A stretch of DNA of 64,000 bases from Actinomycetota bacterium (GCA_036259835.1 DATABA010000022.1:15087-79086); one strand, 5' to 3'. Shown: positions 7,969 through 43,841, counted from the stretch's first letter. A program made the numbers and translations. The notes: generated from the letters alone by a model not told the origin.

Positions 7969-7971
7969 GCG

Positions 7972-27075: not shown

Positions 27076-27150
27076 GGGGGTGTAGCTCAGTGGTAGAGCG
27101 CTGCCTTCGCACGGCAGAGGTCGTCGGTTCGACTCCGATCACCTCCACCA
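27076..27150 (+). tRNA. tRNA-Ala (anticodon CGC), CCA encoded
   Basis: GGGGGTGTAGCTCAGTGGTAGAGCGCTGCCTTCGCACGGCAGAGGTCGTCGGTTCGACTCCGATCACCTCCACCA. It has the G3:U70 Ala identity pair and anticodon loop TTCGCAC. Confidence 0.9.
27110..27149 (+). repeat. attL-like copy of the direct repeat (inside tRNA-Ala)
   Basis: cacggcagaggtcgtcggttcgactccgatcacctccacc recurs at 43044-43083 with 39/40 identity. Confidence 0.8.
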
Positions 27151-27359
27151 CTCGAACTCGCAGGCCAGAGCCGGTTTTCACCACTTCCGGACGCGAGCGC
27201 CACGACTTCGGACCTACCCTCAGGCGGCAAACAGGCGGCATCACCCGCCATTTCGTCCAGCCGCTCGGCTAGTCGCTCCTCAACAGACGGGAACAGGTGC
27301 CCGTAGATGTTGAGCGTCGTAGTGATCGAGGCGTGACCGAGACGTGCCATGATTTCCAC
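27151..27359 (-). pseudogene. Tyrosine recombinase (phage-type integrase) C-terminal remnant
   Basis: The translation VEIMARLGHASITTTLNIYGHLFPSVEERL contains the conserved LGH...T...Y catalytic-Tyr box. An in-frame TGA sits immediately upstream, so about 300 N-terminal codons are missing. Confidence 0.75.
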
Positions 27360-27734
27360 TGTTCATTCCGATTCTTGAACTCAATGTGGGTGCTTCGGCG
27401 CCTCTCATCGTTGAATCATTCACGCGACACACGCCAACTGGGCTGAGGGTCAGCTAGTGGGACGGAATGCAGCGAGCTGACCATCCAAACCGATCCTCAC
27501 TCATTGCCATAGTTGTCGTACTCGTAACCCAGATTCTGGTCCGGGGGGGCGGTCGCCGTGACCTACCTGGTAACCCGACCGGACCCGGTCGATCCCCGCG
27601 AGGGCGCTTGCATTCAGAGCGGCCGTAGGTGGGACCGCGCCCTTGAGTTCTGTGCCCCACCGGGGTTTTAGGGCGAGCGTTCAACCACTATTCCGCGACT
27701 CCAATCCGGACCGTGATAGAGACGTCGAATTGCT

Positions 27735-28496
27735 CTAGTGCGGCCCGAATGGGTTGGGGTCGATCCCTTCGTCCTGGAAGGTGGGGATGACAAGCACCTT
27801 CTTGCTCTGGTCGTCGAAGGCCACCGCGTTGGCGCACTGGCGCCCTTCGTAATCGCCCGGAGCGATCTCGGCGGTCCAATCATCGAAGTGGTGATCTTCG
27901 AGGACCTCCTCGGCGATCTGCAGGGATTGGTCCTGCGTCAAACAGGCGTTGTGTTCCGTGGCCGGCCCTTCCGTAGCAACTTCAAACATGCGCCTCACAA
28001 CCGCATCGCGCATCGCGATGAACCGCTTGGCCTCTCTGACGTAGTCATCGGGCAGATCTTGAAACCCGAGCCTCGTGCAGAGCCCATCGTCATCGCTGGG
28101 GAAGACGTGGATGGCGCCACCTTGCCCAGCGCATGCGGTCATCGCCGGTGCCGGACCGAGGTTCCCGAGATCTCCTCTGTTCCACAGTCGCGTACACACC
28201 TTCCCCGGGTGCTCGCCCGTGGTCGACACGATCGCGACGTTGGAGTCGTCGGTTGGCGCGTCGTGGCAGCCGATCCCGGCGGCGACCACCTGATCGGATT
28301 TCAGAAGGACGTAGCTCGTCGCTGCGACTCCGAGCAAGGCAGCGGGCAGTAGGATCACCGCCAGTCGCCGACGGCGTTTGCGATACGTCAGGCGATTTCG
28401 TTCCTTGGCTATCTCCTTCATGAGAGCTTCCTTTCTCAGCTCGAGCCGAGCGGGAGGAAGGTCCCTTGGGGAGGGTGGTGACAGCAGTTCTTTCAT
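27735..28496 (-). CDS. Putative single-pass anti-sigma factor with Cys-containing extracytoplasmic domain
   Basis: A 4-nt overlap with the upstream ECF sigma gene, a basic stretch plus a TM segment (RRRRLAVILLPAALLGVAATSYVLL), and an extracytoplasmic region of about 190 aa with 6 Cys. No family recognised. Confidence 0.45.
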   Translation of the reverse strand: MKELLSPPSPRDLPPARLELRKEALMKEIAKERNRLTYRKRRRRLAVILLPAALLGVAATSYVLLKSDQVVAAGIGCHDAPTDDSNVAIVSTTGEHPGKVCTRLWNRGDLGNLGPAPAMTACAGQGGAIHVFPSDDDGLCTRLGFQDLPDDYVREAKRFIAMRDAVVRRMFEVATEGPATEHNACLTQDQSLQIAEEVLEDHHFDDWTAEIAPGDYEGRQCANAVAFDDQSKKVLVIPTFQDEGIDPNPFGPH

Positions 28497-29113
28497 CCCT
28501 CGTCCTCGCTCGGTTGTGTGATGGAAGCTCCGGCCAGAGCGCTGCTTTCGTTGCTGTAGTGTCCGGTGCCGAGTGAAAGTTCGCGCAACCGCCGACGCGC
28601 CCGGGCAACGCGGGACTTGACCGTGCCCACAGGGATGCCCAGCGCGAGCCCTGCCTCTTCATAGCTCAGGTCGGACCACACCACGAGCGCCAGCGCCTCT
28701 TGCTCTTGCTCGGGTAGGTCGGCGACCATGTTCAACAGGTTATGCATGCGGCGCTCGTCGTCGAGTCTGTCGGCCGCGTCGTCTTCAGGTAGCAGCCTCG
28801 GCATCTCGGCCTGGACCCGCTGCAGTGCCGCGTCCCGCCTACGCGCTGAGCGCCGTTGGTTCCGCATAAGGTTGGTTGCCGTGCCTAAAAGCCAAGGACG
28901 CAAAGACTCTCCTGAGAGTTGGATCTCGTCCCTCCTGCGCCACGCCTCCAAGAAGGTGGCCGCCATCAGGTCCTCGGCTAGATCCCACTTGCCGACCCGG
29001 CGGAAGCAGTAGTTGTAGACAGCCTTCGCGTGGCGCTCGAATAGTTCGGCAAAAGCGGCGTCTGATCTGGCCGTCTGCTCCCACAGCTTCCTATCGGATG
29101 GGTACTCCATCAC
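28493..29113 (-). CDS. ECF-type RNA polymerase sigma factor
   Basis: AEDLMAATFLEAWRRR...LRPWLLGTATNLMRNQRR (region 2) and LSYEEAGLALGIPVGTVKSRVARARRRL (region 4). Confidence 0.85.
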   Translation of the reverse strand: MMEYPSDRKLWEQTARSDAAFAELFERHAKAVYNYCFRRVGKWDLAEDLMAATFLEAWRRRDEIQLSGESLRPWLLGTATNLMRNQRRSARRRDAALQRVQAEMPRLLPEDDAADRLDDERRMHNLLNMVADLPEQEQEALALVVWSDLSYEEAGLALGIPVGTVKSRVARARRRLRELSLGTGHYSNESSALAGASITQPSEDEG

Positions 29114-29572
29114 CTTCTAATGTCCGATTCGGTCCGCTGGTTCGCGTTCTAGAAGCGAGTCGTCTATCACTCTGTGCGTCCGTGGCTCGGCCTACACTCC
29201 GGCCCATTGGCTCCGATCTTCTTCGACCAGCATGCCTGCAAGCCGCCATCGACAACTGACCTGATAGGACGAGAGCTCGATTGGACCTGCCGTCATTGCC
29301 AGCGACGATGGCGATTGGAGCACTACTTCGCGAAGGATGGCTCGATCGTAGGGCCGTCATGGATCGTGCTTTAGGTTGCTCGGGCTCCTCGCCGCGTTAG
29401 GCGCTGGCCTCTCGCTGATCCTGTTCCTCCGGTCTGGGGATGAGCCGAGCCGGGTCCACTGGTTGGCGTGGGCGATCCTGTCCGCGCTCGTCTTCGTCGT
29501 CTGGATGCTGGTTCTCTAACCGAGCAGGCGGCAAACAGGCGGCAGAATGCAGTGAATGCCGCGTAAACGGTC

Positions 29573-29806
29573 CTAGCGGCGCGCAGCCAAAAAGGGGCTT
29601 TGACAAGCGCTTCTGGCTATTTCCGCGAGGAGCGCCCGCGGGCCCAAATCAAAGAATGCGGCTAGAGCCACAAGCTCTTCGATAGAGATTCCCCGCCGTC
29701 CCGCCTCGGCCTCGATGACTGTTTGTCGGTGCCAAGAGAAACCCAACGTCCGAAATGCGTTGGCTAATTCCTCCGTCTGGCGGTTCTCGGAGCCGACGAA
29801 CGTGAA
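29573..29806 (-). pseudogene. XRE-family HTH regulator fragment (no start codon)
   Basis: Hand translation gives ...TEELANAFRTLGFSWHRQTVIEAEAGRRGISIEELVALAAFFDLGP... It is preceded by an in-frame TAA with no ATG/GTG. Not in the ORF track. Confidence 0.5.
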
Positions 29807-29838
29807 TTAGGCAACGGCGCCGCCGGTGGTCTCTGGAT

Positions 29839-30966
29839 CTAAACCGGTACGAGAAGAGCTTCGTCGATCTGCCAGTGAACTTCCACTTGGCGGGAGATGA
29901 ACGTCGCTCTGGCGCTTGCCTGAGGCGTCCGAACGAAGAGCCGAATTCCTTCCTCTGTTCGAACGACGAACTTGATTACCGGCCCGAGGTAGATCGCCTC
30001 CTCAAGGGTTCCACGCAGGGCCATCTCGCGGCGATCGCCAGTTCCGCCTTGTCCGCTAGCGGGGCGGACGTATGTACGCTCGGGGCGAACGACGAGAGCG
30101 ATCGCATCTCCGCTGGCAAGACCCAGTCGATGAACAGATTTCGGGTCGAGGCGGATCGGGCGTCGCTCCGACCGGACCAGCAAGCTCTCCTCCACGTCCA
30201 GAGTACCTCGGAAGATGTTCGATTCGCCGATGAAGCTAGCCACAAACAAGGAACTCGGCTGTTCGTACAGCTCTTCACCAGTACCAGTTTGTTGAATCCT
30301 TCCCTTGTTGAAGACGGCGATGCGGTCGCTCATCGCCAAGGCTTCTTCCTGGTCGTGCGTTACATAGATGATTGTGACGCCGAGGTCTCGACTGATCTGC
30401 ATGATTTCTAATTGAAGGGCCTCGCGGAGTTGCTTGTCGAGAGCTCCCAAAGGCTCATCCATGAGAAGCACCGGAGGGTGGAACACTAGCGCGCGAGCCA
30501 AGGCGATCCGTTGCTGCTGCCCTCCGGAGAGCTGGCGCGGATAACGATCACCTAACTGCTCGAGTCGGACCAACCGAAGTGCCTCGTCGACCATGCGATG
30601 AATCTCGTGCCGAGGGAGCCGTCGCGCCTCGAGCGGAAACGCAACGTTCTCGGCGGCGGTCATGTGCGGAAACAAAGCGTAGTTCTGGAAGACCATCCCC
30701 AGGTTCCGCTTATGGGGCGGCATTCCGGTGAGGTCGCGACCGTCGAGGTTCACGCTTCCGGCGTGCGGATGAATGAATCCGGCGATAACCCGAAGCAGCG
30801 TCGTCTTTCCGGCGCCTGATGGGCCCAGAAGCGTGAGGAACTCGCCCGGCTGTACCTCCAGTGTGATGTCCTCGATCGCCACCTCGTCACCGTAGAGGCG
30901 TGTGACGCCTTCTACCGAAAGCGCCCCGACTTCGGTTCTCTCCGGCCGGATCACTCTGGTCGTCAA
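29839..30966 (-). CDS. ABC transporter ATP-binding protein (PotA/UgpC-like)
   Basis: [30 protein letters not shown] and a TOBE-like C-terminus. Trimmed from the 579-aa track ORF to TTG 30966, which overlaps the permease stop (TTGA). GTG 30954 is an alternative start. Confidence 0.85.
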
Positions 30967-31766
30967 CTGATCCTTTGCGCGCGCTTGCGAGGGAGTAGCA
31001 CGAGCATCAGCAGACCGAACGTGACCCCGGTCAATACGGTCGCCATTGCAGCGATCGTTGGCTCGATGACGCTCCGGACCTGTCCCCACATCACGACGGG
31101 AAGCGTTCGAACGACTGGGCTCGAGAGGAAGATGGACACGACCACCTCGTCCCAGGAGGTGATGAAAGCGAAGAGGGCCCCCGTGACGATGCTTGGCCTC
31201 GTCAGGGGCAGCGTTATCCGGAGGAATGTCCGGACGGGACCGGCGCCCAGGCTCCTTGCGGCGACCTCGAGCGCTGGATCTAGGTTCTGCAAACTGGCCC
31301 CGACGACGATGACCACCAGTGGGAGCGCGAGCGCGGTATGGGCAAGGACAAGTCCATGGAAAGTACCGATGAGCTTCCAATCTGAGTACACGAAGAACAT
31401 CCCAATAGCGACCACCACGACTGGTGTTACCAACGGAGACATCACAAGGCCGGAAATGGCGGCCCGCCCCGGGTACCGGCCTCGCACCAGTCCAAGCGCT
31501 GTGACTGTTCCGAGCGATGTCGCGAGACCAGCTGTGGCGACCCCGACTTTGAGACTGGTGACGAGTCCGGCTGTCCAACTGGGATCGTCAAACAAAGTCC
31601 CGTACCAGCGGATGCTAAAACGGGTTGGTGGGAATGTGAGCAGCCCGCCGGCCGAAAATGACATGGGAATGACGATGAGCGTCGGGACGATCAGAAGCAG
31701 GGCAACGAGTCCGGCATACCCATATATCGCGACGTTCCAGTCGAGGATGCGTTTGCCCGCCATCAA
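30963..31766 (-). CDS. ABC transporter permease (PotC-like)
   Basis: Six TM helices and the EAA loop EVAARSLGAGPVRTFLRITLPL. Confidence 0.8.
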   Translation of the reverse strand: MMAGKRILDWNVAIYGYAGLVALLLIVPTLIVIPMSFSAGGLLTFPPTRFSIRWYGTLFDDPSWTAGLVTSLKVGVATAGLATSLGTVTALGLVRGRYPGRAAISGLVMSPLVTPVVVVAIGMFFVYSDWKLIGTFHGLVLAHTALALPLVVIVVGASLQNLDPALEVAARSLGAGPVRTFLRITLPLTRPSIVTGALFAFITSWDEVVVSIFLSSPVVRTLPVVMWGQVRSVIEPTIAAMATVLTGVTFGLLMLVLLPRKRAQRIS

Positions 31767-32716
31767 TCTTGGGCAGGCCCGAAAGCTTCACTAATCCGGA
31801 CGAAGCGGCTTCCGACCCAGAGAAGGATGAGCGTCACAGCGAGAAGAGTTATGGCTAGGGCACTCCCCGTTCCGAACTGCAGACGCTCGGTAACCATGTT
31901 GACGACGAGTTCACTGAACATGGCATTGCGCGGGTTTCCGAGTAGCGAGGGAGTGATGTAGAAGCCTAGGGACAACACGAATACGAGGAGACACCCCGCC
32001 GCGACACCGGGGAGGCTTAGGGGCATGAAGACGCGGAGGAACGCTCTGGCGGCGCTCGCGCCCAACCCTTTCGCGGCCGGGATCAGGTCAGCATCGATTC
32101 GCCGCATCGCTGCGAAGACTGGCAAGACCATGAAGGGCAGGAGGATGTGGCTCATGCCGATCGTGACGCCGAGCGTGTTTCGCATTAGTGCCACGGGATG
32201 TTCAATGACGCCAAGCCGGAGCAACAGCGAGTTGATGACGCCAGTGTCGCCAAGCAGAACGGTCCAGGCATACGTTCGAACGAGCAAGCTCGACCAGAAC
32301 GGAACCAGTACCAAAGCCGCGAGCAGCGCTCGGAGCCGGTTTCCGCTGTGGTTCATGGCGTAGGCGTATGGGTAGCCAAGCGCGATACAAATCACTGTGA
32401 CGAGCAGAGATATTCGGATCGTCGTCCACAAGACTCTGGCGTAAACGGAAGATTCGACGAACACCAAGTAGTTCTCTGGCCCCGGATCGGTGAAGCTCCG
32501 GGCTCCCATTCGGAAGACAGGGAGCACGAAGAAGAGTGTCAGAAAGACGACCCCTGGAATCGCGAGAACGGCCCACCCATCGAGTAGCTTGCGCCGGGGC
32601 GGTTCCGCCGCTTCTGAGTTCCCGGTCAATTTGGCGAGCACCGGGCTACGACCAATCAGGTCTGAAGCCACTCCTGCCATCGCCGATCGACGGCGTCGAA
32701 ATTCTCGTCCCACCAA
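31763..32716 (-). CDS. ABC transporter permease (PotB-like)
   Basis: TM-rich, with the EAA loop PAAKGLGASAARAFLRVFMPL. The start may be the internal Met near 32680. Confidence 0.8.
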   Translation of the reverse strand: MVGREFRRRRSAMAGVASDLIGRSPVLAKLTGNSEAAEPPRRKLLDGWAVLAIPGVVFLTLFFVLPVFRMGARSFTDPGPENYLVFVESSVYARVLWTTIRISLLVTVICIALGYPYAYAMNHSGNRLRALLAALVLVPFWSSLLVRTYAWTVLLGDTGVINSLLLRLGVIEHPVALMRNTLGVTIGMSHILLPFMVLPVFAAMRRIDADLIPAAKGLGASAARAFLRVFMPLSLPGVAAGCLLVFVLSLGFYITPSLLGNPRNAMFSELVVNMVTERLQFGTGSALAITLLAVTLILLWVGSRFVRISEAFGPAQD

Positions 32717-33708
32717 ACGTCGTTGAAGCCTATGCCGGTCTCAACGTAGGACGTCGGAAGGTCGCGTTCCTTCGTCCGATCGACGTTGTTGACCGCTCCC
32801 TCGTTCGCAGGAGCGTACGCAATGTGCTTGCTGATCTCAGCGTTGTTCTTGTCTGACACGATCCATGAGATCAGCTGCATAGCTGCTCGAACGTTCTTCG
32901 AGCCCTTCGGGACCACCAAGTAATCGGCGGTGAGTATGTGTTGATCCCACATGATGTCGACGGGAGCGCCTTCCCGCTGGATATCGAAAATGCGGCCGTT
33001 CCAGCTCATTCCCATGGCTACTTCCCCGTCTGCGAGGAGCTGTGCCGACTGCGCGCCCGAGTCGTACCAGACGATCTGGTCCTTGACCGTGTCGAGTTTC
33101 GCGAACGCCCTGTCCAAGTCGAGCGGGTAGAGCTCATCTGCCTGAACACCATCCGCGAGGAGCGCCATCTCCAGGAGGCCCCAGGATGCGTAGTTGAAGG
33201 CCCCGCGTTTTCCAGGGAACTTCTTCAGATCAAAGAAGTCAGCGAAACTCGTTGGTTGCTTTCCAGCAAACGCGTCTGACCTATAACCGACGACGACCGA
33301 ATAGACGATATCTGGAACCCGGTATCCTCTGGTCGGGAAGAGATCCGACTGGAGCTCGTCGCAGGGAACGATCTTGCAATCGATGGGCTCGAGGACGTCG
33401 TGATCGCTCGCCAACCCGAAGTCGTTCCCGACTTCAACTACGTCCCATGTGACGTTTCCCGATTCAACCATGGCCTGGAGCTTCGCGTAGTCGGTGGGCT
33501 CCTCCTGGACAATCCTGACGTTCGGATTGGCCTTCATGAAGGGCTCCAGCCACGCGTTGGTCTGGGCCTGCTGATACGCGCCTCCAAAGCTTACGAAGGT
33601 CAACGTGACCGGCTCACCGCCTCGCCGCGTCTCCGGCCCTCCACAGGCCGCAGCGATCAGTGCCAGTACGGAAAAGGTCGTCGCGATTCTCCGCCAGGTC
33701 ATCCGCAC
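32656..33708 (-). CDS. Extracellular solute-binding lipoprotein (family 1, PotD/PotF-like)
   Basis: Lipobox VLALIAAACGG. It is about 350 aa and is the first gene of the ABC operon. Confidence 0.75.
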   Translation of the reverse strand: MRMTWRRIATTFSVLALIAAACGGPETRRGGEPVTLTFVSFGGAYQQAQTNAWLEPFMKANPNVRIVQEEPTDYAKLQAMVESGNVTWDVVEVGNDFGLASDHDVLEPIDCKIVPCDELQSDLFPTRGYRVPDIVYSVVVGYRSDAFAGKQPTSFADFFDLKKFPGKRGAFNYASWGLLEMALLADGVQADELYPLDLDRAFAKLDTVKDQIVWYDSGAQSAQLLADGEVAMGMSWNGRIFDIQREGAPVDIMWDQHILTADYLVVPKGSKNVRAAMQLISWIVSDKNNAEISKHIAYAPANEGAVNNVDRTKERDLPTSYVETGIGFNDVWWDENFDAVDRRWQEWLQT

Positions 33709-33742
33709 CTCCTGCCGACGTGTCCGATCGCAGCATAAGAGC

Positions 33743-33760
33743 TAACCAAGCGCTTGGTCA
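33743..33760. promoter_or_regulatory. Candidate TetR operator 2 (palindrome TAACCAAGCGCTTGGTCA)
   Basis: The core ACCAAGCGCTTGGT is a perfect 14-bp palindrome about 35 nt upstream of the SBP start. It matches the site at 34549 in 15/18 positions. Confidence 0.55.
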
Positions 33761-33824
33761 ACCGAGCCTCGCGGTCCGTGGACCTGCGGCGGGCCTAGCA
33801 GAAGCTCGCGGGTGGGGCGGTTCG

Positions 33825-34502
33825 CTACTTGCTGCCTCGTGTTGACCGTGAAAGGTTCGGCTCTTTCTGGCCGGAGGTACCCACGTCGCGTTCGGCTGCG
33901 ACGATCCGGTTGAACAGACTCGTGAGCAGGTGCTCGGTCTGAAGTGCCGGGTCGAGAACCTGCTGCTGAACGAGCCCGTCAGCTGCGGAAGCAAAGGCCT
34001 CTCCCACGCCGTGCGGGTCTAGTGAGATAAGGCTGAGCTCGTCGGCGACCTCGCGGAAAAGCGTGACGAACGGCTTCCGCCAGCGCGCGTACTCGCCGGC
34101 TAGGTGCTCCCGGACCTCTTCGTCGCCCAACGCGAACCAAAACAGCGCAAGGTGTACCCGCATGACTTCGATGGTCGCGGGTTCCGCCATCCAAGCGATG
34201 ACCGACCGGGCACGAGATTCCGCGGGACCAGCGCCATTGACGATCCGCTCCAGCGGCTCGACCCAGTCGCGCCTGGCGTGTTCGACCAGAGCTAGGACAA
34301 GGTCTCTCTTGTCCTTGAAGTGGTAATGGCACATGCCGTGCGAGACGCCTGCTATGGCCGCCACCCGGCGCGTGGTAAAGCGGTTGATTCCCTCTTCGGC
34401 CAGCACCTGGCGCGCAGCCTCGAGGATTCGACTACGCGTCTCTTCCCCACGACTAAGCCGCTCCGCTGAGGCGTTCCGCACGACCACGACAGAGTCCATC
34501 AT
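33825..34502 (-). CDS. TetR/AcrR-family transcriptional regulator
   Basis: HTH FTTRRVAAIAGVSHGMCHYHFKDKRDLV. Confidence 0.85.
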   Translation of the reverse strand: MMDSVVVVRNASAERLSRGEETRSRILEAARQVLAEEGINRFTTRRVAAIAGVSHGMCHYHFKDKRDLVLALVEHARRDWVEPLERIVNGAGPAESRARSVIAWMAEPATIEVMRVHLALFWFALGDEEVREHLAGEYARWRKPFVTLFREVADELSLISLDPHGVGEAFASAADGLVQQQVLDPALQTEHLLTSLFNRIVAAERDVGTSGQKEPNLSRSTRGSK

Positions 34503-34548
34503 GACGGAACTCGGCCCCCGTGCGGCTCACGCATCCGCCTCTCCCAGT

Positions 34549-34566
34549 TGACCAGACGCTTGGTCA
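34549..34566. promoter_or_regulatory. Candidate TetR operator 1 (TGACCAGACGCTTGGTCA)
   Basis: Inverted arms TGACCA/TGGTCA separated by 6 nt, about 47 nt upstream of the tetR start. The site lies in the divergent intergenic region shared with the 34722 operon. Confidence 0.55.
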
Positions 34567-34721
34567 GTTCTAGAGTCTGGACCTCCCTAGCCAGGGGTCG
34601 GAGGCATGCGAGCTGTGTGGGATCACGGTGGCGCTGCGTTGCGTCAGCGCCAGTGTCAGCTTCGGTGCTCGGCGCGCCGTGGTTTTCGCCCCCGGGGACC
34701 GATTCCACCTAATCCTCAGCA

Positions 34722-35528
34722 GTGCGGCCGCTTCGGCGCATGACCGAGCTCGACATGTGCGCTCGGACACATGACGACCTCGCCTCAAAGGCACTTCAGA
34801 TTGTGGAGCAAGCGTCGGCCATGGGCCTTTCTCTCCGAATCCTCGGAGGCGTGGTGATCCGCTGGTACGTGACGGTCGCTCGGGAGACTTACGACGTCCT
34901 GCGCCCGGTTCCGAACGACATCGATCTTCTCGCTCCGCTCAAGTCGAGCCATGCCATACGGAAAACGCTCACGTCATTGGGATACGAACCCGACGATCGG
35001 CTCATTGCTTGGCGCGGGGACCAGCGTCACCGTTACTGCGAGGCGTCGAACGGTGGAGGCGTGTACATCGACGTGTTCCTCGGCACGCCGCCCCAGTGTC
35101 ATCGACTGGAACTCGCGCACGCGCTGGCCACGCCGGGTCCGGCGCTGCCTCCCACCCTTTTGCTGCTTACGAAGCTCCAGATCGCATCCATCAACGAGAA
35201 GGACCTGATAGATGTGGGCTTCCTTCTCTTGGAGTCTCCGTCGGCGCTGACGAACGACGGCAGTGAGGCGTCCATATCGCTCGGATACTTGGCGGACGTT
35301 CTCCGCAGAGACTGGGGATTTCACCATACGGCGTTGGGCAATCTCCGGAAACTGTCAGAAAAGCTGGATTCTCTCTTTCCAGCGACTTTCCGTTCAGTGG
35401 TTGACGAGCGGATCAACGCACTGACCCGCGTTATTCAAGAGGCTCCGAAGACACTTCGCTGGAAGGTTCGGTCAAAGGTCGGCACCCGATGGCAGTGGTA
35501 CCAAGACGTCGAAGAGGTCGTCCGGTGA
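34722..35528 (+). CDS. Pol-beta-fold nucleotidyltransferase-like protein (uncharacterised NTase family)
   Basis: LRILGGVVIRWYV...RPVPNDIDLLAP...LTSLGY carries the GG...DxD pattern seen in PF14907-type and aminoglycoside NTases (pattern recognised by eye). Confidence 0.45.
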   Translation: MRPLRRMTELDMCARTHDDLASKALQIVEQASAMGLSLRILGGVVIRWYVTVARETYDVLRPVPNDIDLLAPLKSSHAIRKTLTSLGYEPDDRLIAWRGDQRHRYCEASNGGGVYIDVFLGTPPQCHRLELAHALATPGPALPPTLLLLTKLQIASINEKDLIDVGFLLLESPSALTNDGSEASISLGYLADVLRRDWGFHHTALGNLRKLSEKLDSLFPATFRSVVDERINALTRVIQEAPKTLRWKVRSKVGTRWQWYQDVEEVVR

Positions 35529-35541
35529 GGGAGAAGCTGGC

Positions 35542-36513
35542 ATGATCCGGCGGCCGAAGGCTCGGGCGAACCGTCGCCGACTGCTGTTCGTGACCGACCT
35601 TCACGGGAGCGACCTCACGTTCCGCAAACTCCTGAAGGCGCTCGAGGTGTGGCGCCCCGACGCCGTCATAGCGGGCGGAGATGTTGCTGGGAAAGCGATG
35701 GTCCCTGTCGTCGACCTCGGGGACAAGTTCCGCCTGAAGTGGATGGGGCAGGTCCACGAGTTCGCCAGTCGCGAGTTGTCCACTTTCCTGGAGAAGGTCG
35801 GCCAGGTCGGTTTCTATTGGCACATCGCACCCGTCGAAGAGATCGAAGCGATGCGCGACGACCCGGTCAGAACGAATCGCATCTTCGAGGAGGTGATTGC
35901 TCGTCGCTGGTCCGCTTGGCTCGAACGGCTGGAAGATCGCTGTCGCCAACTTCGGGTCCCGGCCTACGTCATGGCGGGCAATGACGACCCGTGGAGTCTG
36001 GATGCGGTCACCTTGGTTCAGCGCGAATGGGTCACTCCCGCCGATGGCGCAGTTGTTCCGGTTCTGGATCACTGGATGCTCGTCTCTTGTGGACTCGGAA
36101 ATCCGACGCCGTGGCAATGCCCTCGGGATGTCTCCGAGAGTGAGTTAGCCGACAAACTTCGAAGCATCACTGAGGGGCTAAAAGACTTCAGCAACGTCAT
36201 CGCCAACATCCACCCACCCCCATTCGATTCGACGCTCGATCTGGCACCGAAGCTCGATACGTCCGTTTCGCCGCCTCGGCCGGTCCCAGGCGAGATTGCT
36301 CCAGTCGGTAGCACAGCGGTAAGGGATTTCCTCGCCGACGCTCAGCCGCTGCTCAGTTTGCACGGCCACATTCATGAATCGCGGGCTGCTGTTCGGCTCG
36401 GGAGGACGTGGGCCGTCAATCCCGGGAGCGAATACGCGGAGGGCGTCCTCCGAGCGGCCCTCGTGACGGTCGAGCCATCCAGAGTCGTGAGTCATCAACT
36501 GGTGGCGGCATGA
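35542..36513 (+). CDS. Calcineurin-like metallophosphoesterase
   Basis: LLFVTDLHGS, AGGDVAGK, MAGNDDPW and LHGHIHES follow the canonical D-x-H / GD / GNH(D) / GH-x-H pattern. Confidence 0.75.
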   Translation: MIRRPKARANRRRLLFVTDLHGSDLTFRKLLKALEVWRPDAVIAGGDVAGKAMVPVVDLGDKFRLKWMGQVHEFASRELSTFLEKVGQVGFYWHIAPVEEIEAMRDDPVRTNRIFEEVIARRWSAWLERLEDRCRQLRVPAYVMAGNDDPWSLDAVTLVQREWVTPADGAVVPVLDHWMLVSCGLGNPTPWQCPRDVSESELADKLRSITEGLKDFSNVIANIHPPPFDSTLDLAPKLDTSVSPPRPVPGEIAPVGSTAVRDFLADAQPLLSLHGHIHESRAAVRLGRTWAVNPGSEYAEGVLRAALVTVEPSRVVSHQLVAA

Positions 36514-36528
36514 GAAAGGAGGCAGGCA

Positions 36529-38199
36529 GTGGAAACGGCTGCTCGATCGCGGAAATCTGACGACCAAGCACTCGATGTCTTCCTGCGGCAATCGTCGGGA
36601 TTGGTCCGAGAGCTCTCTATCTTCGATGCTGCGGTTTTTGGAGTGCTTGCAAGCGGGCTCTTCTTCTCCTTCATTTATTTCTTCCCATACCCGCAGTACA
36701 TCACGCCGGGGATTAACACCGTCCTGATGCTCGTCCTCGGCACGCTGGCCTCGTTACCCGTAATCATCTGCTATGCGGCGCTTGGCTCGGCGATGCCGAG
36801 AGCGGGCGGCGACTACCTGTACGACAGCCGGACGGTCTCTCCGGCACTGGGTTTCGCCATTCCACTTGGTATGGGGGCGTTCGTCTGGACCATCCTGTTT
36901 CCACTGGGCACATTCGTCATCGTCTCGTTTGGGCTCGGGCCCGTTCTCAACGCGGCTGCCTCGCAGTTCGGAATCGAAACCCTCACTGGATGGGCCAACG
37001 CGCTCCAGGGAACAACTGGACAGCTGATCACGACGATCGTTCTCGCATTGCTGGCGTGGTTGATCACCATCCGAGGAGTCCGGCTCTACCGGATCATCCA
37101 GCGTAGCGTCTTTCTTCCGGCGATCGTGGTGACGAACGTGGCGTTGTTGATCCAGCTTTTCGTCAGCTCAAACGACCGGTTTCGGCAGGCATTCGACCGG
37201 TTCCCAGCGAACGAAGCAGACGGCATCACCTACGCCGGCATCCTCTCAACCGCCCAGCAGAACGGCTGGCAGCCGCCGTCATTCAGCTGGGGAGACACGC
37301 TCCTCTGGATCCCCGTGATGCTGGGCGTCGTCCCATTCGTGGTCTACGCGACCGAGGGCATGCTAGGAGAGGTCAAACGCGCCCGTGACTTCGCCCGGTT
37401 GAGCCGAGCTCTCATCCTAGGGGCGCTCTATATCGGGATTGTCGTCTTTGGGCTCCTGTACTTCCTGTTCGAACGAATGGCGTCCCAGGAGTTCATCTCT
37501 GCGGCGTCGTTTCTCGTGAATGAGGAAATTATCGCGCTGCCATACGACCTCAACATCACATCCTTCAGCTCCATCGTGAACGACAACTTCTTTCTGGTTC
37601 TTGCGGTGTCGCTCGGGTTCATCGCGAGCGCCTTCCAACTCATGACCGCCGTGATGATGAATGAGACCCGGATCCTGGTCTCCATGGGGCTCGACCGCAC
37701 GCTCCCCGCGAAGTTCGCCGACGTGAACCCGAGGTTCCACGCGCCGATCTTCTCGGCTACCGTGTACGTTGCCCTCGTCCTGGGCATGACGCTGTGGTTC
37801 ACCTACGCGCCGGAGTGGTCCACGGTGTTCACGTATCTCAGCGTGTACGGCGGGCAGGGCGTATTGCTCTTCGGCTGCCTGGCAGCGTTCCTCCTCCCGA
37901 TCCGGGCGAGGGCGATCTACGAAGCCTCTCCCGTGGCGAGGTACCACATCGGGCGTCTTCCGCTGATCACGGTGATCAGTGCGCTCGGAATGATTCTGTA
38001 CGTGGCAAGCCTGTTCGTCATCGCCACCAACGACAAGGTCGGCCTCACCGGAGCGGGCCTCGGCTTGCCCGCCGACCCCCGCTGGCTCCTGATCGTGCCC
38101 GTCGTTTTCTTCCTCGCGGTCTTCTTTGCGTGGCAATGGGTCGAGAGGAGGCGAGGGATCGATACGAGGCTTGTCTTCGAGGCGGTCCCGCCCGAGTGA
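36529..38199 (+). CDS. APC-superfamily amino acid/polyamine permease
   Basis: A 556-aa protein with at least 12 TM helices. AALGSAMPRAGGDYLY is the APC signature region. Confidence 0.75.
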   Translation: METAARSRKSDDQALDVFLRQSSGLVRELSIFDAAVFGVLASGLFFSFIYFFPYPQYITPGINTVLMLVLGTLASLPVIICYAALGSAMPRAGGDYLYDSRTVSPALGFAIPLGMGAFVWTILFPLGTFVIVSFGLGPVLNAAASQFGIETLTGWANALQGTTGQLITTIVLALLAWLITIRGVRLYRIIQRSVFLPAIVVTNVALLIQLFVSSNDRFRQAFDRFPANEADGITYAGILSTAQQNGWQPPSFSWGDTLLWIPVMLGVVPFVVYATEGMLGEVKRARDFARLSRALILGALYIGIVVFGLLYFLFERMASQEFISAASFLVNEEIIALPYDLNITSFSSIVNDNFFLVLAVSLGFIASAFQLMTAVMMNETRILVSMGLDRTLPAKFADVNPRFHAPIFSATVYVALVLGMTLWFTYAPEWSTVFTYLSVYGGQGVLLFGCLAAFLLPIRARAIYEASPVARYHIGRLPLITVISALGMILYVASLFVIATNDKVGLTGAGLGLPADPRWLLIVPVVFFLAVFFAWQWVERRRGIDTRLVFEAVPPE

Positions 38200-38296
38200 G
38201 AAGCTCAGGAGTTCCAAAGGCTGCCGGCGTCAGTTGCCCAAAGTAGGCCGAAGGCCACCTCGCGGGCGTTGATAAGCGAGCCGTGAAAGGAACGCG

Positions 38297-39502
38297 ATGA
38301 CGTATTTCCCCATGGATGAGTACGAGCAACGGTGGAGTCGCGTATGGGATGCGATTCACTCCGCGGGGTTCGAGACCGCGCTGGTCTGGGGGCAGAGCGG
38401 CGGAAATTACGAGCGGTGCAATGACATCCTCTACCTGACGAACTACTACTCGAACCAGTCAGGTCATGCGTACGACTCAAGCGTGAGACTGGCGAGCAGT
38501 TACTCGGCGGCATTGTTCGCAAATGGAGATTCGCCGGAACTCTTCGCCGACCAACCTGACTACCCTGAAGACCTTCTTGCAGTCGGTCGTGTTTCGTCCG
38601 ATCGAAACCTCATCCGTGCTGTGACTGCCGGACTCCGGCAGAGGAGCGCCACGGGAAAGGTACTCTCGGTCGGACACGACTTCCTTCCCGTGAAGTACGC
38701 CCGCCTCCTCGAAGACGCTTTCCCCGGGATTGAGTTCACTTACGACGATGAGCTAGTGCGCGACGTCCGACGATACAAGTCGACGTTCGAGCTCGAGTGC
38801 ATACGTGAAGCTGGTGAAACAGCTTCCGCAGCCCTCCAGGCGCTGATGGAAACCGCCATGCGTGGCGGTACACAGGCTGACGCCGCAGCCGCCGGAATGG
38901 CGGAGCTCGCTCGACGAGGAGGCTTCCCCCACATGATTCCCGTCTCGAGCGGGGCTACGATTCACCGATTCACCGGCGACCCGATCGCGGGCTTCTCTCG
39001 AGAAATCGTCATGGCTCCTGGCGACCTCGTCCGTGCGTGGGTCTACGGACCAATCTGGCAGGGGTACTGGCTCGATCCTGGGCGAACTGGCATCGTCGGT
39101 CGAGCTGGCACTCGTCGACAGCGTGAGTTGATTCGAACCGCTACCGACATCACCCATCGCCTGATGGAGTCGGTTACCCCCGGTTCCCGGGTGCTCGATG
39201 TCGTCGCTCTCGGCGAGCGACTGACTACAGAGAGCGGCTCTCAGGACGATCCCGTATCAAACATGTTCCCGTTGTACGGGCACGGAGTCGGGATGTTTTG
39301 GGAACGACCCACGCTTGGGGAAGGGATGCTCGGCGAGCCCGGGACAGAAGAGCGATACGCGTACTTCCACTCCGGCCAAACGTGCACCATCGAAGTCTTC
39401 CTGAGTTGGCCGGGCGTGGGAAGCGCTGGGATCGAGGAGTGCTTCATCGTGCAGGACGGAAAAAACGAACTACTTACTACGACTGATCTGGAGTGGTGGT
39501 GA
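38297..39502 (+). CDS. M24-fold (creatinase/prolidase-like) hydrolase, paralog A
   Basis: Creatinase-like N-domain (MDEYEQRWSRVWDAI...ALVWG) and a pita-bread C-domain (YWLDPGRT, YGHGVGM, TIEVF, GIEECFIV). Confidence 0.7.
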   Translation: MTYFPMDEYEQRWSRVWDAIHSAGFETALVWGQSGGNYERCNDILYLTNYYSNQSGHAYDSSVRLASSYSAALFANGDSPELFADQPDYPEDLLAVGRVSSDRNLIRAVTAGLRQRSATGKVLSVGHDFLPVKYARLLEDAFPGIEFTYDDELVRDVRRYKSTFELECIREAGETASAALQALMETAMRGGTQADAAAAGMAELARRGGFPHMIPVSSGATIHRFTGDPIAGFSREIVMAPGDLVRAWVYGPIWQGYWLDPGRTGIVGRAGTRRQRELIRTATDITHRLMESVTPGSRVLDVVALGERLTTESGSQDDPVSNMFPLYGHGVGMFWERPTLGEGMLGEPGTEERYAYFHSGQTCTIEVFLSWPGVGSAGIEECFIVQDGKNELLTTTDLEWW

Positions 39503-39547
39503 GGAGTAATGAACGCGTTCCCGTTGGAGGGCGCCCCGAAGCTTGGG

Positions 39548-40741
39548 TCACCACCATTCGAGTTCGGTCGTGGTGAGCAGTTCATTTCGCTCCCGTCCCA
39601 CGATGAAATTCTGTTCCACACCCGCGCTGCCCACGCCCGGTCGATACAGAAATGTCTCGGCCGTAACGGTCTGGCCTTCGTGAAACGCCGTCACCTCGTT
39701 CTTCCACCCTTCGGTGAAGTAAGGCTCCTCCCAGTAAAGCCCAATCCCATGGCCGTACAACGGGAACATCCTTGCCGCTTGGTCATCCTCCGTACCGGCC
39801 TCCCTCCGCAGCTGGGAGCCGAGATTCACGATGTCCTTCACGCGGACCCCCGGACGGATCGCCTCCATCACGCGAGAGACGATGTCATTGGCCGCCCCGA
39901 TGAGCGCTCGCTGATCCGGACGCGGCTTCCCACCAACCACGGCCGTCCGGCCAGGATCGCACCAGTAACCTTGCCAAGCGGGGCCGTACACCCAGGCGCG
40001 GACCATATCACCGTCGCTCATCGAGATGGCGGGCGACGAGCCAGTAATCGGATCGCCCGCGAAGTGGTACATATCGTTGCCGCTGGCAACGGGAACCATG
40101 TGCGGAAATCCACCGCGCCGCACAAGCTCCGATGCACCGGCCGCAGCGGCCTCCGCTTGTGTCCCGCCGCGCACTGCCCGCTCCATCAAGGCGGTCATCG
40201 CCGCGGATACGGCGACGCCGGCCTCGCGGTAGCAGTCGAGCTCGCGCTGGGTCTTGTGAAGCCTCACGTCACGAACCAGGCGGTCGTCAGCGACAAATTC
40301 AACGCCGGGAAGAGCTTCCGTCAGAAGGCGGTAATACTTCGCGGGGAGGAAATCCTCGCCAACCAGGGCCACGCGACCCTCCGTGATTCCGCGCGCCTTG
40401 AGCACTTCTGCGACCGTGACGAGAACGTTCTCACCCCAGACGACGCGCTCAACCGCGATCGGGAGGAGCTCCGAAGGGTAGTCGGGTTCGTCGGCAACCA
40501 ACAGGGGGACGTCACGCTCGTGCATCAGGACGGCGCTGAATCCGAGTCCCGTCCACCAATCCGTGTCGTAGTCGTGTCCAGACTGACTCGAGTAGTAGTT
40601 GGTAAGGTACAGAAGGTCGCCGTGTCTCTCGTACGTACCGGCCGTCCGTCCCCAGACCAGCGCGGTCGCTATTCCCTTAACCTCCATCGCGTCGTAGATG
40701 CGACGCCATCGCTCCTCGTACTCGTCCTGAGGGAAGTACAC
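39548..40741 (-). CDS. M24-fold (creatinase/prolidase-like) hydrolase, paralog B
   Basis: By eye about 50-55% identical to paralog A along the whole length, including the identical C-terminus NELLTTT(D/E)LEWW. Convergent with A. Confidence 0.7.
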   Translation of the reverse strand: MYFPQDEYEERWRRIYDAMEVKGIATALVWGRTAGTYERHGDLLYLTNYYSSQSGHDYDTDWWTGLGFSAVLMHERDVPLLVADEPDYPSELLPIAVERVVWGENVLVTVAEVLKARGITEGRVALVGEDFLPAKYYRLLTEALPGVEFVADDRLVRDVRLHKTQRELDCYREAGVAVSAAMTALMERAVRGGTQAEAAAAGASELVRRGGFPHMVPVASGNDMYHFAGDPITGSSPAISMSDGDMVRAWVYGPAWQGYWCDPGRTAVVGGKPRPDQRALIGAANDIVSRVMEAIRPGVRVKDIVNLGSQLRREAGTEDDQAARMFPLYGHGIGLYWEEPYFTEGWKNEVTAFHEGQTVTAETFLYRPGVGSAGVEQNFIVGRERNELLTTTELEWW

Positions 40742-40874
40742 GATCCGCCTCCTCTTGCTGGTTCACTCACGGCTACGGCGTGGGCGAACGCCGGGCGGAA
40801 TCGTAGATCACCGGGGGTGCGATTTGCCGCCGACATCGCTGGTCGTTCCCACGCTCGTTTCGGAGGCGGGTGAG

Positions 40875-41744
40875 ATGAGACCGCTCCCGATCCTGGCGGT
40901 CCAGGCCGCTCCAGTCCCGTGGGAGGTGGACGCGACGTGGGAGAAATTCGAAGTGACGACGAGACGACTCGTCCAAGCGTTCCCGAGCACGAAACTGGTC
41001 GTGTATCCGGAGCTGTTTCTATCGGCGATCGGGCCCACGACGATCCCTCCCCGAGCCGGCTATTCGGTCGAAAGGGTGGCGCAGCGCATCCCTGGACCCT
41101 TGACGGAGCGGCTCGGCGAGCTTGCCGAAGAACTCCAAATCTGGCTCGTGCCTGGATCGGTCTACGAGATCGGAGACGCCGGCCGAATCTACAACACAGC
41201 CGTCGCCGTTCGACCCGACGGCTCCATCGCGGCGCGCTATCGAAAGATTTTTCCGTGGCGGCCATGGGAGCGGTCATTCCCCGGCGAGGACCTCGTCCTG
41301 TTCGACATCGATGATGTGGGTCGTGTGGGCCTGATGATCTGCTACGACGGCTGGTTCCCTGAAGTCGCGCGGAATCTTGCTTGGCTAGGGGCTGAACTGA
41401 TTCTCCAGCCTGCTGCCACCTGGACCTCCGACAGAGAGCAGGAGCTCGTTCTCGTCCGCGCTCAGGCCATCACCAATCAAGTGATCGTTGTCAACGTCAA
41501 CGTCGGCGGTGGTTACGGGGAAGGGCGCAGCTTAGTGGTGGATCCAGAGGGGCACGTCCTTCAAGCTGCTGGCGGCGGGGAAGAAGTAATTACGGACGTC
41601 CTCGATTTCGACGGCGTGCGAAGAGTGAGGCAGTACGGCTCTGTAGGGATGAACAGGCTGTGGGAAGAAGTGCGTGAGCGCCAGAGGATAAGGCTTCCCA
41701 TGTATGGCGGCTCGCTTCCCGGCATGATTCAACCATCCGCGTAA
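40875..41744 (+). CDS. Carbon-nitrogen hydrolase (nitrilase superfamily amidase)
   Basis: The E-K-C triad contexts VVYPELF, RYRKIFPW and MICYDGWFPE are present. Trimmed to ATG 40875. Confidence 0.75.
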   Translation: MRPLPILAVQAAPVPWEVDATWEKFEVTTRRLVQAFPSTKLVVYPELFLSAIGPTTIPPRAGYSVERVAQRIPGPLTERLGELAEELQIWLVPGSVYEIGDAGRIYNTAVAVRPDGSIAARYRKIFPWRPWERSFPGEDLVLFDIDDVGRVGLMICYDGWFPEVARNLAWLGAELILQPAATWTSDREQELVLVRAQAITNQVIVVNVNVGGGYGEGRSLVVDPEGHVLQAAGGGEEVITDVLDFDGVRRVRQYGSVGMNRLWEEVRERQRIRLPMYGGSLPGMIQPSA

Positions 41745-42345
41745 GGCACCCACCCTCACGCCCGCCCTTGACCAGTTTCCTTGAGCTCCAAGAATGGCGG
41801 GAGTTCGCCAGTGAACGGGATGATCCGGGTGAGGTGTAAAAATCGGGCAGGGCGACGCCCTCCTCCCATCGTCGCAGCGCCGTTGTGAGAACGTCGGCTC
41901 CAGAACGAAGCGCTCTTGGCCCAGCCCTAACCGCTTTCGTTGTCCCTTTATCCACTCGCTGAACTCGGCCGTAAGGCTTTCGCTCCGCTTTGGCCGCCCT
42001 AGCTGCACCGCTTCCTCCCTTCCCGCCGTGGGAAGCTGCTGACCACGGTAAGCCCCGGCAGTGACTCAAGCTGAGTTTGGAAACCCGTTTTTGTCACTCT
42101 GGTCCGTTGGGGATTTTCGGTGGTCTCGCAAGCGCCTGCCGCAAGAAGCTGGGTTGGTTCCGTCTGAACAACAACTGAGGACGGCATATCCCGTTGTGGG
42201 AGTCGCTCAACAACTACTCCGCGCCTTTCGGCTTGGATGAGCTGATTTTGAATTGACCGGCGCGGCTGAAGGATCATTTCGATGAGCGAATGCGTACAAC
42301 CGTGAAAACTGCACTTGGCCTACGGTTTCTATCTCCGGGGCGCGC

Positions 42346-42936
42346 TTAGAAGGCTGCAGACACGAGAAACCACAGCGCCGCGAACGGGGCCACTGCAATC
42401 TCCACCAGGCATCCGATCACGCCGACGAGCGCCGCCACCAGGACCCACGGTGCAAACACGAACCGCGCTGGCACCAGAGTGAGAAGCAACTCTCGCGTGC
42501 CCGCAGCGGTTCGCCAGAAGCGGTACGAATTGAAGACCGACCTGACCCAGCTCTTCTGTGCGGCTCCCCGAGCTTCGCGGGACAGGCGTCGAAGCTCCTC
42601 TGCCCGCTCCCCGACGAGCTGAGGTAACGCACGGAAGTGCTCCCGGACTCGAGTCAGGCGGCTCAGCCCGACAGTGAAGACGAGCAAGACCGCAGGACTT
42701 GCCATGAGCACGAGTGCCCAGAGAGCCAGCGTCGTGGGCTCCCGGGCGGCCTGAACCTGCGTTGGGATGGTGACCCAGATCAGAGCACCGGCGGCCATAC
42801 CCAGCAAGGAGAGCTTTCGCAATCGCCCAGCCGTTCGATGGATCAACGCTAGGACCGCGTCGAGGGCCTCCGACGTCCGGCCCAGTGCCGAGCGCGGAGC
42901 GCGGCCTTCGACCGGATTACCGGATCGCTCTTCCAT
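42346..42936 (-). CDS. Hypothetical membrane protein (about 4 TM)
   Basis: The ORF has good hydrophobic segments (LSLLGMAAGALIWV, LALWALVLMASPAVLLVF, PWVLVAALVGVIGCLVEIAV). No family recognised. It is the last gene before attR. Confidence 0.4.
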   Translation of the reverse strand: MEERSGNPVEGRAPRSALGRTSEALDAVLALIHRTAGRLRKLSLLGMAAGALIWVTIPTQVQAAREPTTLALWALVLMASPAVLLVFTVGLSRLTRVREHFRALPQLVGERAEELRRLSREARGAAQKSWVRSVFNSYRFWRTAAGTRELLLTLVPARFVFAPWVLVAALVGVIGCLVEIAVAPFAALWFLVSAAF

Positions 42937-43043
42937 CCCTGTGGTGTTCCCGGTGTGGGTGCTTGTACTCGCAGGGAGTGGACCGTCCGTGGGGCATCCT
43001 CCAATTTTGCGCTGGCCTAGGAATCCCTCTGACCTCGCCTACA

Positions 43044-43083
43044 CACGGCAGAGGTCGTGGGTTCGACTCCGATCACCTCCACC
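43044..43083 (+). repeat. attR-like displaced copy of the tRNA-Ala 3' half
   Basis: cacggcagaggtcgtGggttcgactccgatcacctccacc. The single mismatch would disrupt the T-stem. There is no D-arm or 5' acceptor strand upstream, so this is not a tRNA gene. Confidence 0.8.
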
Positions 43084-43149
43084 CATCCGGCGATCTGTGC
43101 CCGGCCGCTGGCCGCCGTACGGCTTCTGTGATCCGCGTGAAGCTGGATG

Positions 43150-43728: not shown

Positions 43729-43841
43729 CGCATGCTCCGTCCGATTTAGTGGTCGTTAGAAAATTCGCATTGACCACTCTGTCGCGACCTTGTGACATGT
43801 CAAGCATTTGACCGATGGTTGGGGTGCTCTCTATCGCCTAC

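Follow-up and report, generated by a model that had tools for sequence, protein, structure and literature searches.

What is the roughly 16-kb segment that separates an intact tRNA-Ala(CGC) gene from a second, partial copy of that gene in this member of the Actinomycetota? The segment lies at positions 27076-43083 of the stretch of DNA that was analyzed (GCA_036259835.1, DATABA010000022.1:15087-79086; 64,000 nt), which is called the window here. A preliminary description, made from the sequence alone, had taken it for an old integrative element in the tRNA gene, immobilized by loss of its integrase and with its cargo retained. With good confidence, the segment 27151-43083 is interpreted here as the immobilized remnant of a genomic island at the anticodon-loop ('A'-type) site of tRNA-Ala(CGC). 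This interpretation, which agrees in substance with the earlier one, is supported by the uniqueness of the bounding repeat, the absence of the cargo from relatives, and a compositional break. The signature of such islands and the anticodon-centered 'A' class of site have been described with Islander (Hudson, Lau & Williams 2015; PMC4383910).

The segment had been described as bounded by a 40-nt repeat, and both copies were found. The 40-mer at 27110-27149 is repeated on the same strand, with one mismatch, at 43044-43083. The 64-kb window has no further copy, and 100 dinucleotide-preserving shuffles gave 0 matches. The extent of the repeat had to be revised, as the 40-mer begins at the last anticodon base rather than at the 3' strand of the anticodon stem, and the full similarity covers 47 nt (27103-27149 versus 43037-43083) with three mismatches (44/47 identical). 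Since the similarity starts at 27103/43037, the distal fragment begins in the anticodon stem-loop. The mismatch within the 40-mer, C27125 versus G43059, corresponds to the third base of the T-stem 5' strand (canonical position 51, partner G63), where the G of the distal copy would break the pair, as had been proposed. The two further mismatches are located in the anticodon loop (T27107/A and G27109/A), and the distal copy reads CAC for CGC. This copy was not scored as a tRNA by Rfam. A third, middle tRNA fragment, as in a tandem array, was sought at word size 7 with an E-value limit of 50, and none was found.

The possibility that the 40-mer is a dispersed repeat is contradicted by its two copies in the window and by the near absence of its core elsewhere. 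When the 30-nt T-arm/acceptor core was searched against 185,579 species genomes, the only matches were the homologous distal fragment of L001, a relative described below, and one unrelated spirochaete. The att core had no match in viral contigs (IMG/VR), and a search of genome contigs for the att-end pattern found only L001.

The minus strand just inside the tRNA end reads ...*TVEIMARLGHASITTTLNIYGHLFPSVEERLAERLDEM... and contains the motif ARLGHASITTTLNIYGHLFP in a short reading frame that points toward the tRNA. This was assigned to the C-terminal end of a tyrosine integrase on the basis of the following data. The stub matches phrog_1 (integrase) in PHROGs (E=3e-7), database proteins with the stub sequence carry PF00589, and in tblastn with longer homologs only their last ~50 residues aligned, to 27207-27359. 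The stub itself gave no Pfam hit (PF00589), and the HxLRH/Arg-I part, represented by the HDLRH box in homologs P0023-P0025, had no counterpart anywhere in the 64 kb by tblastn. From the catalytic set R-K-H-R-H/W-Y of the ~170-aa domain, only the box II His and the catalytic Tyr are kept (LGHASITTTLNIYGHL). The in-frame stop that had been reported ahead of the stub is the TGA at 27363-27365; the reported length of about 35 codons was too short and becomes about 50 by tblastn. With ~15% of its length left, the integrase should be unable to act, judged by the catalytic residues known for tyrosine recombinases, and an island whose integrase is reduced to its last ~50 codons would thus no longer excise by itself. 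The close database matches to the stub are all themselves C-terminal integrase fragments of 79-109 aa, and truncated copies of this type of integrase appear to be common in these soil or metagenome lineages. Two of them, P0024 (L023 178-507) and P0023 (L024 2389-2691), are contig-interior fragments on contigs that bear no tRNA.

The preliminary description had listed no xis, rep, or tra genes, and no such domain was found in any open reading frame (ORF) of the island scanned with Pfam, NCBIfam, and PHROGs. The same three collections, run on the likely genes and on small ORFs between genes, gave neither conjugation genes (FtsK/TraB-type or type IV secretion system) nor replication genes. Phage structural, packaging, and lysis genes were likewise not found; PHROGs was run on the Pfam-less proteins, the stub, and two remnants of XRE-type helix-turn-helix (HTH) genes, and its only matches were the stub and two weak ones to the HTH remnants, the other cargo having non-phage Pfam or NCBIfam assignments. 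A defense-island reading was rejected, as PADLOC gave one sub-threshold partial hit only. Of the two HTH fragments that had been noticed, the first was weakly confirmed by an HTH_3 match below the Pfam cut-off, and the second was read by eye and had one weak PHROGs match. Their frameshifts could be assembly errors. It was also considered that the cargo had split one XRE gene by a 12-kb insertion, with the N-terminal half at ~42008 and the C-terminal half at ~29776; this was rejected because each site has a complete HTH domain with its own frameshift.

The composition of the segment breaks with that of its surroundings. The GC content of 27151-43043 is 0.613, versus 0.650 in the left flank and 0.655 in the right flank (Mann-Whitney p=2e-4 on 2-kb windows). 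Tetranucleotide usage correlates with that of the flanks at 0.80-0.89 inside the island and 0.90-0.95 outside, and GC content at third codon positions (GC3) is mostly lower in the island genes. Three ORF-poor patches (27360-27735, 29113-29839, and 41744-42346) had been singled out for low GC, and they do have 59.0-60.7% GC; intergenic DNA of the flanks has 59.7-63.7%, so the values of the patches fall at the low end of that range and are uninformative by themselves. No riboswitch or other noncoding RNA was found in the patches with Rfam.

Relatives were retrieved through the MDMPI gene of the left flank, and all are metagenome-assembled genome (MAG) or metagenome contigs. The nearest ones with flanks or right end are three MAG contigs, L001 (JALYGK010000036), L009 (JALYEW010000191), and L015 (DATAAX010000101), and one metagenome contig of 1,738 bp from sample 3300067032 (the JGI contig), known here from its encoded products, not as DNA. 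The MDMPI of L001 is 84% identical to that of the window. L001, L009, and L015 keep the PspC and MDMPI genes on the left and the genes for a 245-aa protein and a metallophosphoesterase on the right, and no cargo gene is encoded at their loci, on the JGI contig, or at the locus of the more distant L002 (67% identical). Relatives that keep the flanks are therefore without the cargo, which is the opposite of finding the same genes in the same place in repeat-less relatives and with no break in composition.

In L001 and L009, the left flank was matched through 27167 and was followed by ~68 unrelated nt, then by the equivalent of 42329-43091 at 88.6% identity, distal tRNA fragment included, and then by a jump to 43861. 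L001 has no integrase stub. In L015, 27177 is joined almost directly to the stop codon of u196, the gene for a predicted membrane protein at the right end of the island, and the start of u196 directly to the gene for the 245-aa protein; the distal tRNA fragment is missing. The JGI contig has, in order, u196 (92% identical), 198 bp, and a 100-aa product starting MEIKACLGHASITTTLNTYGHLFPSVEERL that runs antisense through the tRNA. This product is the same truncated integrase stub, and neither cargo nor a counterpart of the cargo permease is present on the contig. In L002 the tRNA is followed by one M23-like ORF and the right flank, with no tRNA fragment and no u196. Within the 27 nt directly 3' of the tRNA, 17 nt are common to L001 and L009 and all 27 nt to L015; this sequence is absent in L002-L006. 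The window-only DNA is thus 27168-42328, or 15.2 kb. Among the side observations at these loci, the ORF of L002 lies at 4692-5300 between tRNA-Ala and the gene for the 245-aa flank protein, was read as an M23 peptidase by eye, and is accompanied by the absence of the PspC gene. The tRNA-Ala neighborhood is variable across the clade.

The last ~0.75 kb of the island consists of u196 and the 107 nt up to the tRNA fragment, and this right-end module is the part that the relatives share: u196 is present in L001, L009, L015, and the JGI contig, and the tRNA fragment in L001 and L009. Between the window and L001, the synonymous divergence (dS) of u196 is 0.10, with 91% identity at third positions, versus 0.54-1.08 for eight flanking genes. 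The corresponding values are 0.21 versus 0.53-1.04 between the window and L015, and 0.14 versus 1.07 between L001 and L015. Because dS is 0.10-0.21 for u196 and 0.5-1.1 for the flanking genes, the right end would have been exchanged horizontally after the lineages of the window and its relatives split. The element had been called old, and this holds only in a relative sense: judged by synonymous divergence, the age of the right end is roughly one-fifth to one-tenth that of the split from the nearest relatives.

The following history is proposed. A tyrosine integrase would have inserted an element that carried its own version of the tRNA sequence, starting at the anticodon loop and ending at the 3' terminus. 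By recombining with the chromosomal gene, the element would have restored a working tRNA at 27076-27150, with element-type CCA and downstream sequence, and a partial tRNA, its 3' portion, would have remained at the far end of the insertion (43037-43083). These insertion steps are taken from the canonical model. The integrase gene, on the minus strand beside the tRNA, has lost its 5' ~85%, and two XRE-type regulator genes, one weakly shown and one read by eye, have also decayed. The 15.2-kb cargo has persisted, with its sigma and putative anti-sigma factors, importer, TetR regulator, permease, M24 pair, carbon-nitrogen hydrolase, and metallophosphoesterase. A single element (integrase, cargo, and u196), acquired after the lineages split and then eroded differently in each lineage up to the edge of u196, appears to be the most economical history, since the relatives carry cut-down, cargo-less versions of the same element.

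Several data weigh against this interpretation. The search for an empty site confirmed the absence of the cargo and did not give the clean join: the exact junction 27150|43084 was found in no relative, the right 0.75 kb and the left 17-27 nt being retained. The boundaries of presence and absence are internal (27168 or 27178 on the left and ~42328-42344 on the right), and do not coincide with the repeats, so the 16 kb need not have been inserted in a single event. An intact version of the element, with full integrase and cargo, was found in none of the collections searched. The GC content of u196 is host-like (0.655) versus 0.59-0.63 for the cargo, and more distant copies of u196 occur in a stable, ordinary chromosomal context with YceI; for these two reasons, the cargo and u196 may differ in history. 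Finally, the T-stem is of the GTCGG/CCGAT type in both repeat copies of the window (the distal one reads GTGGG), against AGGGG/CCCCT in the working tRNA of every relative, a point that is taken up below.

A rival account is accretion in two steps. The starting point would have been a small integrase-less remnant, of the kind seen on the JGI contig, made up of the tRNA, the stub, u196, and the tRNA fragment. Foreign DNA would subsequently have brought the 15.2 kb of cargo into the space separating the stub from u196, through illegitimate or homologous recombination or some other process in which the tRNA site played no part. The repeats would then bound no single insertion. Every relative with the u196 module is without the cargo, the window-only DNA ends away from the repeats, the difference in GC content between cargo and u196 is accommodated, and the JGI contig has the same truncated stub with only 198 bp between it and u196. 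However, neither transposase nor recombinase was found at either end of the 15.2 kb, and a search for direct or inverted repeats bounding it gave only chance-level 9-14-mers, among them a 14-nt inverted match (27154-67/42316-29) with E ~4. With tandem integration at the tRNA site, the incoming DNA would come to lie on the tRNA side of the old stub and not on its far side. By our own count, accretion takes as many events as independent deletions, and no special mechanism is needed for deletions that stop at the border of a gene under selection. The breakpoints downstream of u196 all fall within ~17 nt of its stop codon, a clustering that selection against deletions reaching into u196 would produce. 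Accretion is therefore regarded as unlikely, although with an appreciable chance of being correct, and the single element with differential erosion is retained.

A history with no insertion at all was deemed very improbable. In it, the segment would be ancestral chromosome since lost by the relatives, and the tRNA fragment would have arisen by local duplication, independently of site-specific recombination. It would explain why no exact empty site was recovered, and deletions do occur here, as the loss of the distal fragment in L015 and of the stub in L001 indicates. It does not account for an integrase remnant exactly at the tRNA end, for a composition that breaks at the island, for a cargo permease without a close relative in the clade, or for a right-end dS five- to ten-fold below that of the flanks, and the orientation and extent of the fragment match the canonical island signature (PMC4383910).

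The behavior of u196 allows a further reading of the right end. The protein belongs to a small family (21 close homologs; 72 cluster representatives) and had no Pfam, PHROGs, PADLOC, or PDB hit; its AlphaFold2 model was too poor for a search (pLDDT confidence score 57). Close copies differ by a dS of 0.06-0.22, whereas other genes of the same genome pairs differ by 0.5-1.1, and the ratio of nonsynonymous to synonymous divergence (dN/dS) is 0.3-0.9, unusually high for a conserved gene. The gene is found in at least six neighborhoods: with the 15-kb cargo; at tRNA-Ala with or without the fragment; beside the integrase stub; near a tRNA-Thr and a DinB_2 gene (L013); beside an alpha/beta-hydrolase gene (L016); and beside a cupin gene (L014). 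No tRNA-Thr repeat was present around u196 in L013. No homologs were found in viral contigs (IMG/VR); a scan of metagenome contigs gave three contigs of 1.0-2.0 kb with homologs 60-65% identical and no tRNA, and a scan of genome contigs gave only the contig of L001. From the near-identical copies in at least six contexts, the dS contrast, the clustered breakpoints, and the high dN/dS, u196 and the tRNA fragment might be regarded as a small unit that moves, or is moved in trans, between related actinobacterial lineages and serves as an anchor for cargo swapping rather than being passive debris. We consider this improbable.

Which of the two repeat copies is the original was addressed from the 3' ends and the T-stems. 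In the canonical model, one repeat copy is element-type and the other host-type, and an island at the anticodon loop supplies the 3' part (PMC4383910). The native tRNA-Ala genes of L002-L006 and the distal fragments have no encoded CCA. The proximal tRNAs of the window, L001, L009, L015, and the JGI contig have an encoded CCA followed by CTCGAA (TTCGAA in L015), and in the window this tail runs into the integrase stub. This distribution agrees with the anticodon-loop model, where a new 3' end comes with the island and displaces that of the host. The proximal copy of the window and the distal fragment of L009 are identical at 47/48 positions. In L001 and L009, the distal copies have an undamaged anticodon loop and still carry the C where the window has its mismatch; for this reason, the distal copy of the window is firmly judged to be decaying. 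The earlier view of it as the displaced, decaying original is accordingly sound as to the decay, and the missing CCA fits a displaced original, but the T-stem of the relatives differs from both copies.

The T-stems suggest the opposite polarity. The GTCGG/CCGAT type was found only in the distal fragments of L001 and L009 and in both window copies, and in the core search no other actinobacterial species genome had it in a tRNA-Ala. The AGGGG/CCCCT type is present in the element-free L002 and L005 as well as in the working tRNAs of L001, L009, L015, and the JGI contig. The distal fragment could then be the attP-derived copy of the element, with a host T-stem of AGGGG/CCCCT and a crossover at the T-stem/acceptor junction (CACCTCCA). 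Such a crossover explains L001 and L009 completely, with a native T-stem and element CCA/CTCGAA in the proximal copy and an element T-stem and native CCA-less tail in the distal copy. In the window, the working tRNA would later have gained the element-type T-arm by recombination or conversion between the repeats. Against this stands the start of the fragment at the anticodon stem-loop, which is the hallmark of anticodon-centered sites, at which the 3' part comes from the island (PMC4383910). Furthermore, T-stems vary freely among L002-L006, so that a host-type GTCGG/CCGAT in the clade of the window and L001 is possible. Either polarity needs an extra step to give two like copies: the two repeats may have exchanged sequence, or the element may have come in a variant whose T-arm matched. 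The reversed polarity is held to be a tentative alternative of some substance, and the polarity in which the distal copy is the displaced host end is adopted only tentatively.

The features of the segment and its edges are listed in Table 1. Gene calls were corrected with GC3. In one case, a 454-aa ORF at 39509-40873 (+) was rejected as an antisense shadow of the M24 gene at 39548-40741 (-), since it had no family hit and low GC3.

Table 1. Features of the repeat-bounded segment and its immediate right edge (window coordinates)
Feature	Coordinates	Strand	Evidence
tRNA-Ala(CGC), intact, encoded CCA, T-stem GTCGG/CCGAT; attL end of island	27076-27150	+	ARAGORN; Rfam RF00005, 71.2 bits; sequence
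Repeat, proximal copy: last 3 nt of anticodon-stem 5' strand to discriminator plus CC	27103-27149	+	Repeat search; alignment
Sequence directly 3' of tRNA (CTCGAACTCGCAGGCCA...), contiguous with integrase stub	27151-27177	+	Alignments; tRNA-end comparison
Tyrosine-integrase stub, last ~50 codons, box II LGHASITTTLNIYGHLF with catalytic Tyr	27207-27359	-	Translation; PF00589-bearing homologs; phrog_1; tblastn
Non-coding patch between stub and next gene, 59.3% GC, no protein or RNA family	27360-27734		Six-frame Pfam scan; Rfam; GC
253-aa single-pass membrane protein, putative anti-sigma factor; start overlaps sigma gene stop	27735-28496	-	Position and topology; no Pfam, NCBIfam, or PDB hit
Extracytoplasmic function (ECF)-type sigma-70 factor	28493-29113	-	Sigma70_r2/r4_2; TIGR02937, 87.5 bits (cut-off 42.9)
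XRE-type HTH gene remnant, one frameshift	29573-29838	-	HTH_3 E=7.7e-4, below Pfam cut-off; phrog_6463 E=7e-4
PotA-like ATP-binding cassette (ABC) ATPase; start approximate (579-aa ORF over-long)	29839-30960	-	ABC_tran and TOBE_2; TIGR01187, 364.2 bits (cut-off 355.6)
Two ABC permease genes	30963-31766, 31763-32716	-	BPD_transp_1
Extracellular solute-binding protein, distantly PotD/PotF-like	32656-33708	-	SBP_bac_8 E=1.5e-48
TetR-family regulator, divergent from catabolic genes	33825-34502	-	TetR_N and TetR_C_6
268-aa protein, faint nucleotidyltransferase-5 hit only	34722-35528	+	Pfam
Metallophosphoesterase-family protein	35542-36513	+	Metallophos
APC-superfamily amino-acid/polyamine permease	36529-38199	+	Pfam; NCBIfam
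M24 hydrolase (creatinase/prolidase fold), copy a	38297-39502	+	Peptidase_M24 E=6.6e-18
M24 hydrolase, copy b	39548-40741	-	Peptidase_M24 and Creatinase_N; GC3; PDB prolidases
Carbon-nitrogen hydrolase (amidase/nitrilase superfamily); ORF opens at 40755	40875-41744	+	CN_hydrolase E=3.8e-35
Possible second XRE-type HTH remnant, weak; frameshift near 41905	41780-42008	-	Reading by eye; phrog_4836 E=5.7e-3; no Pfam hit
u196, 196-aa predicted multi-helix membrane protein, small uncharacterized family	42346-42936	-	Homolog searches; dS; alignment
Distal tRNA-Ala 3' fragment (attR), no encoded CCA, 3 substitutions versus proximal copy	43037-43083	+	Repeat search; alignment
192-aa secreted protein, Gly-rich tail, lowest GC3 in region (0.65)	43150-43728	-	GC3; locus comparison

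Within the cargo, a PotABCD-type set is found together in one operon, consisting of the PotA-subfamily ATPase, the two BPD_transp_1 permeases, and the SBP_bac_8 protein. The score of the solute-binding protein is far below the PotD/PotF equivalog cut-offs, and all cargo enzyme matches are far below equivalog cut-offs as well. Only a general reading of uptake and hydrolysis is therefore justified: the cargo may be a module that takes up and hydrolyzes some nitrogen compound of the amine, amide, or guanidino type, regulated by the TetR and ECF proteins. The best database homologs of the cargo permease are 74% and then 61% identical, and no close relative of it was found in any of the 185,579 species genomes, that of L001 included. 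On known plasmids, the only matches to the cargo were short ones to the carbon-nitrogen hydrolase, at 65-71% identity.

Outside the segment, the 0.77 kb just beyond attR (43092-43860, minus strand), which encodes the 192-aa secreted protein, is absent from L001, L009, and L015; it looks foreign, and such DNA thus extends beyond the repeat-bounded island. At the left of the window, on the 3' side of a tRNA-Arg(CCT) gene (14860-14933), synteny with L001 is broken three times over 1379-14857, and window DNA of ~3.1 kb (11766-14857), 3.2 kb (7952-11201), and 6.3 kb (1379-7727) is absent in L001. No tRNA-Arg fragment repeat was found in the 1379-14857 region, which is therefore a variable region but not a recognizable island in a tRNA gene (tDNA). 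A 90-nt tRNA-Gly(TCC) at 62497-62586 was called by ARAGORN and not by Rfam at the gathering threshold, and is probably a false positive.

The value of the assignment is local. It places 15 kb of genes for uptake and hydrolysis of nitrogen compounds among the horizontally acquired DNA of an uncultured Actinomycetota lineage and identifies tRNA-Ala(CGC) as a variable site in the clade. It also provides a clear worked example of an island that standard finders, which depend on an intact integrase, would miss. If anything here merits further work, it is the right-end module, with its several contexts and its synonymous divergence five- to ten-fold below that of the surrounding chromosome.

Three known systems offer themselves for comparison. 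Actinomycete integrative and conjugative elements (AICEs) include pSAM2 in tRNA-Pro and SLP1 in tRNA-Tyr, have att identity of ~45-60 nt from the anticodon loop to the 3' end, and measure 10-25 kb. The segment resembles them in its actinobacterial host, a tyrosine integrase at the tRNA 3' end, the extent of the att segment, and the size range. In contrast to AICEs, only metabolic and regulatory cargo was found in it, and no Rep, FtsK/Tra-type transfer, spread, excisionase, or Nudix/Pra-type genes were detected.

The cryptic prophages of Escherichia coli at tRNA genes are defective integrated elements kept for their cargo. The KplE1 prophage is the subject of PMC2951348. The segment is like these prophages in its decayed integration module, its fixation in place, and the retention of genes that are presumably useful to the host. 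It differs from them in that no phage genes were found with PHROGs among the Pfam-less proteins and in that its integrase is truncated, not merely silent.

The closest agreement is with the Islander islands (PMC4383910). Unlike in those islands, the integrase of the window is a stub of ~50 codons that the Islander integrase filter would reject, a clean empty site was not found, and both repeat copies of the window share a T-arm that differs from that of the working tRNA of the relatives. The features in common are an intact tRNA gene at one end and a direct-orientation 3' tDNA fragment from the anticodon stem-loop at the other, the position of the integrase directly inside the tRNA end, the foreign composition, and a cargo absent from relatives. 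The element is a degenerate member of the anticodon-centered class of tDNA-integrated genomic islands, a common and well-understood kind.

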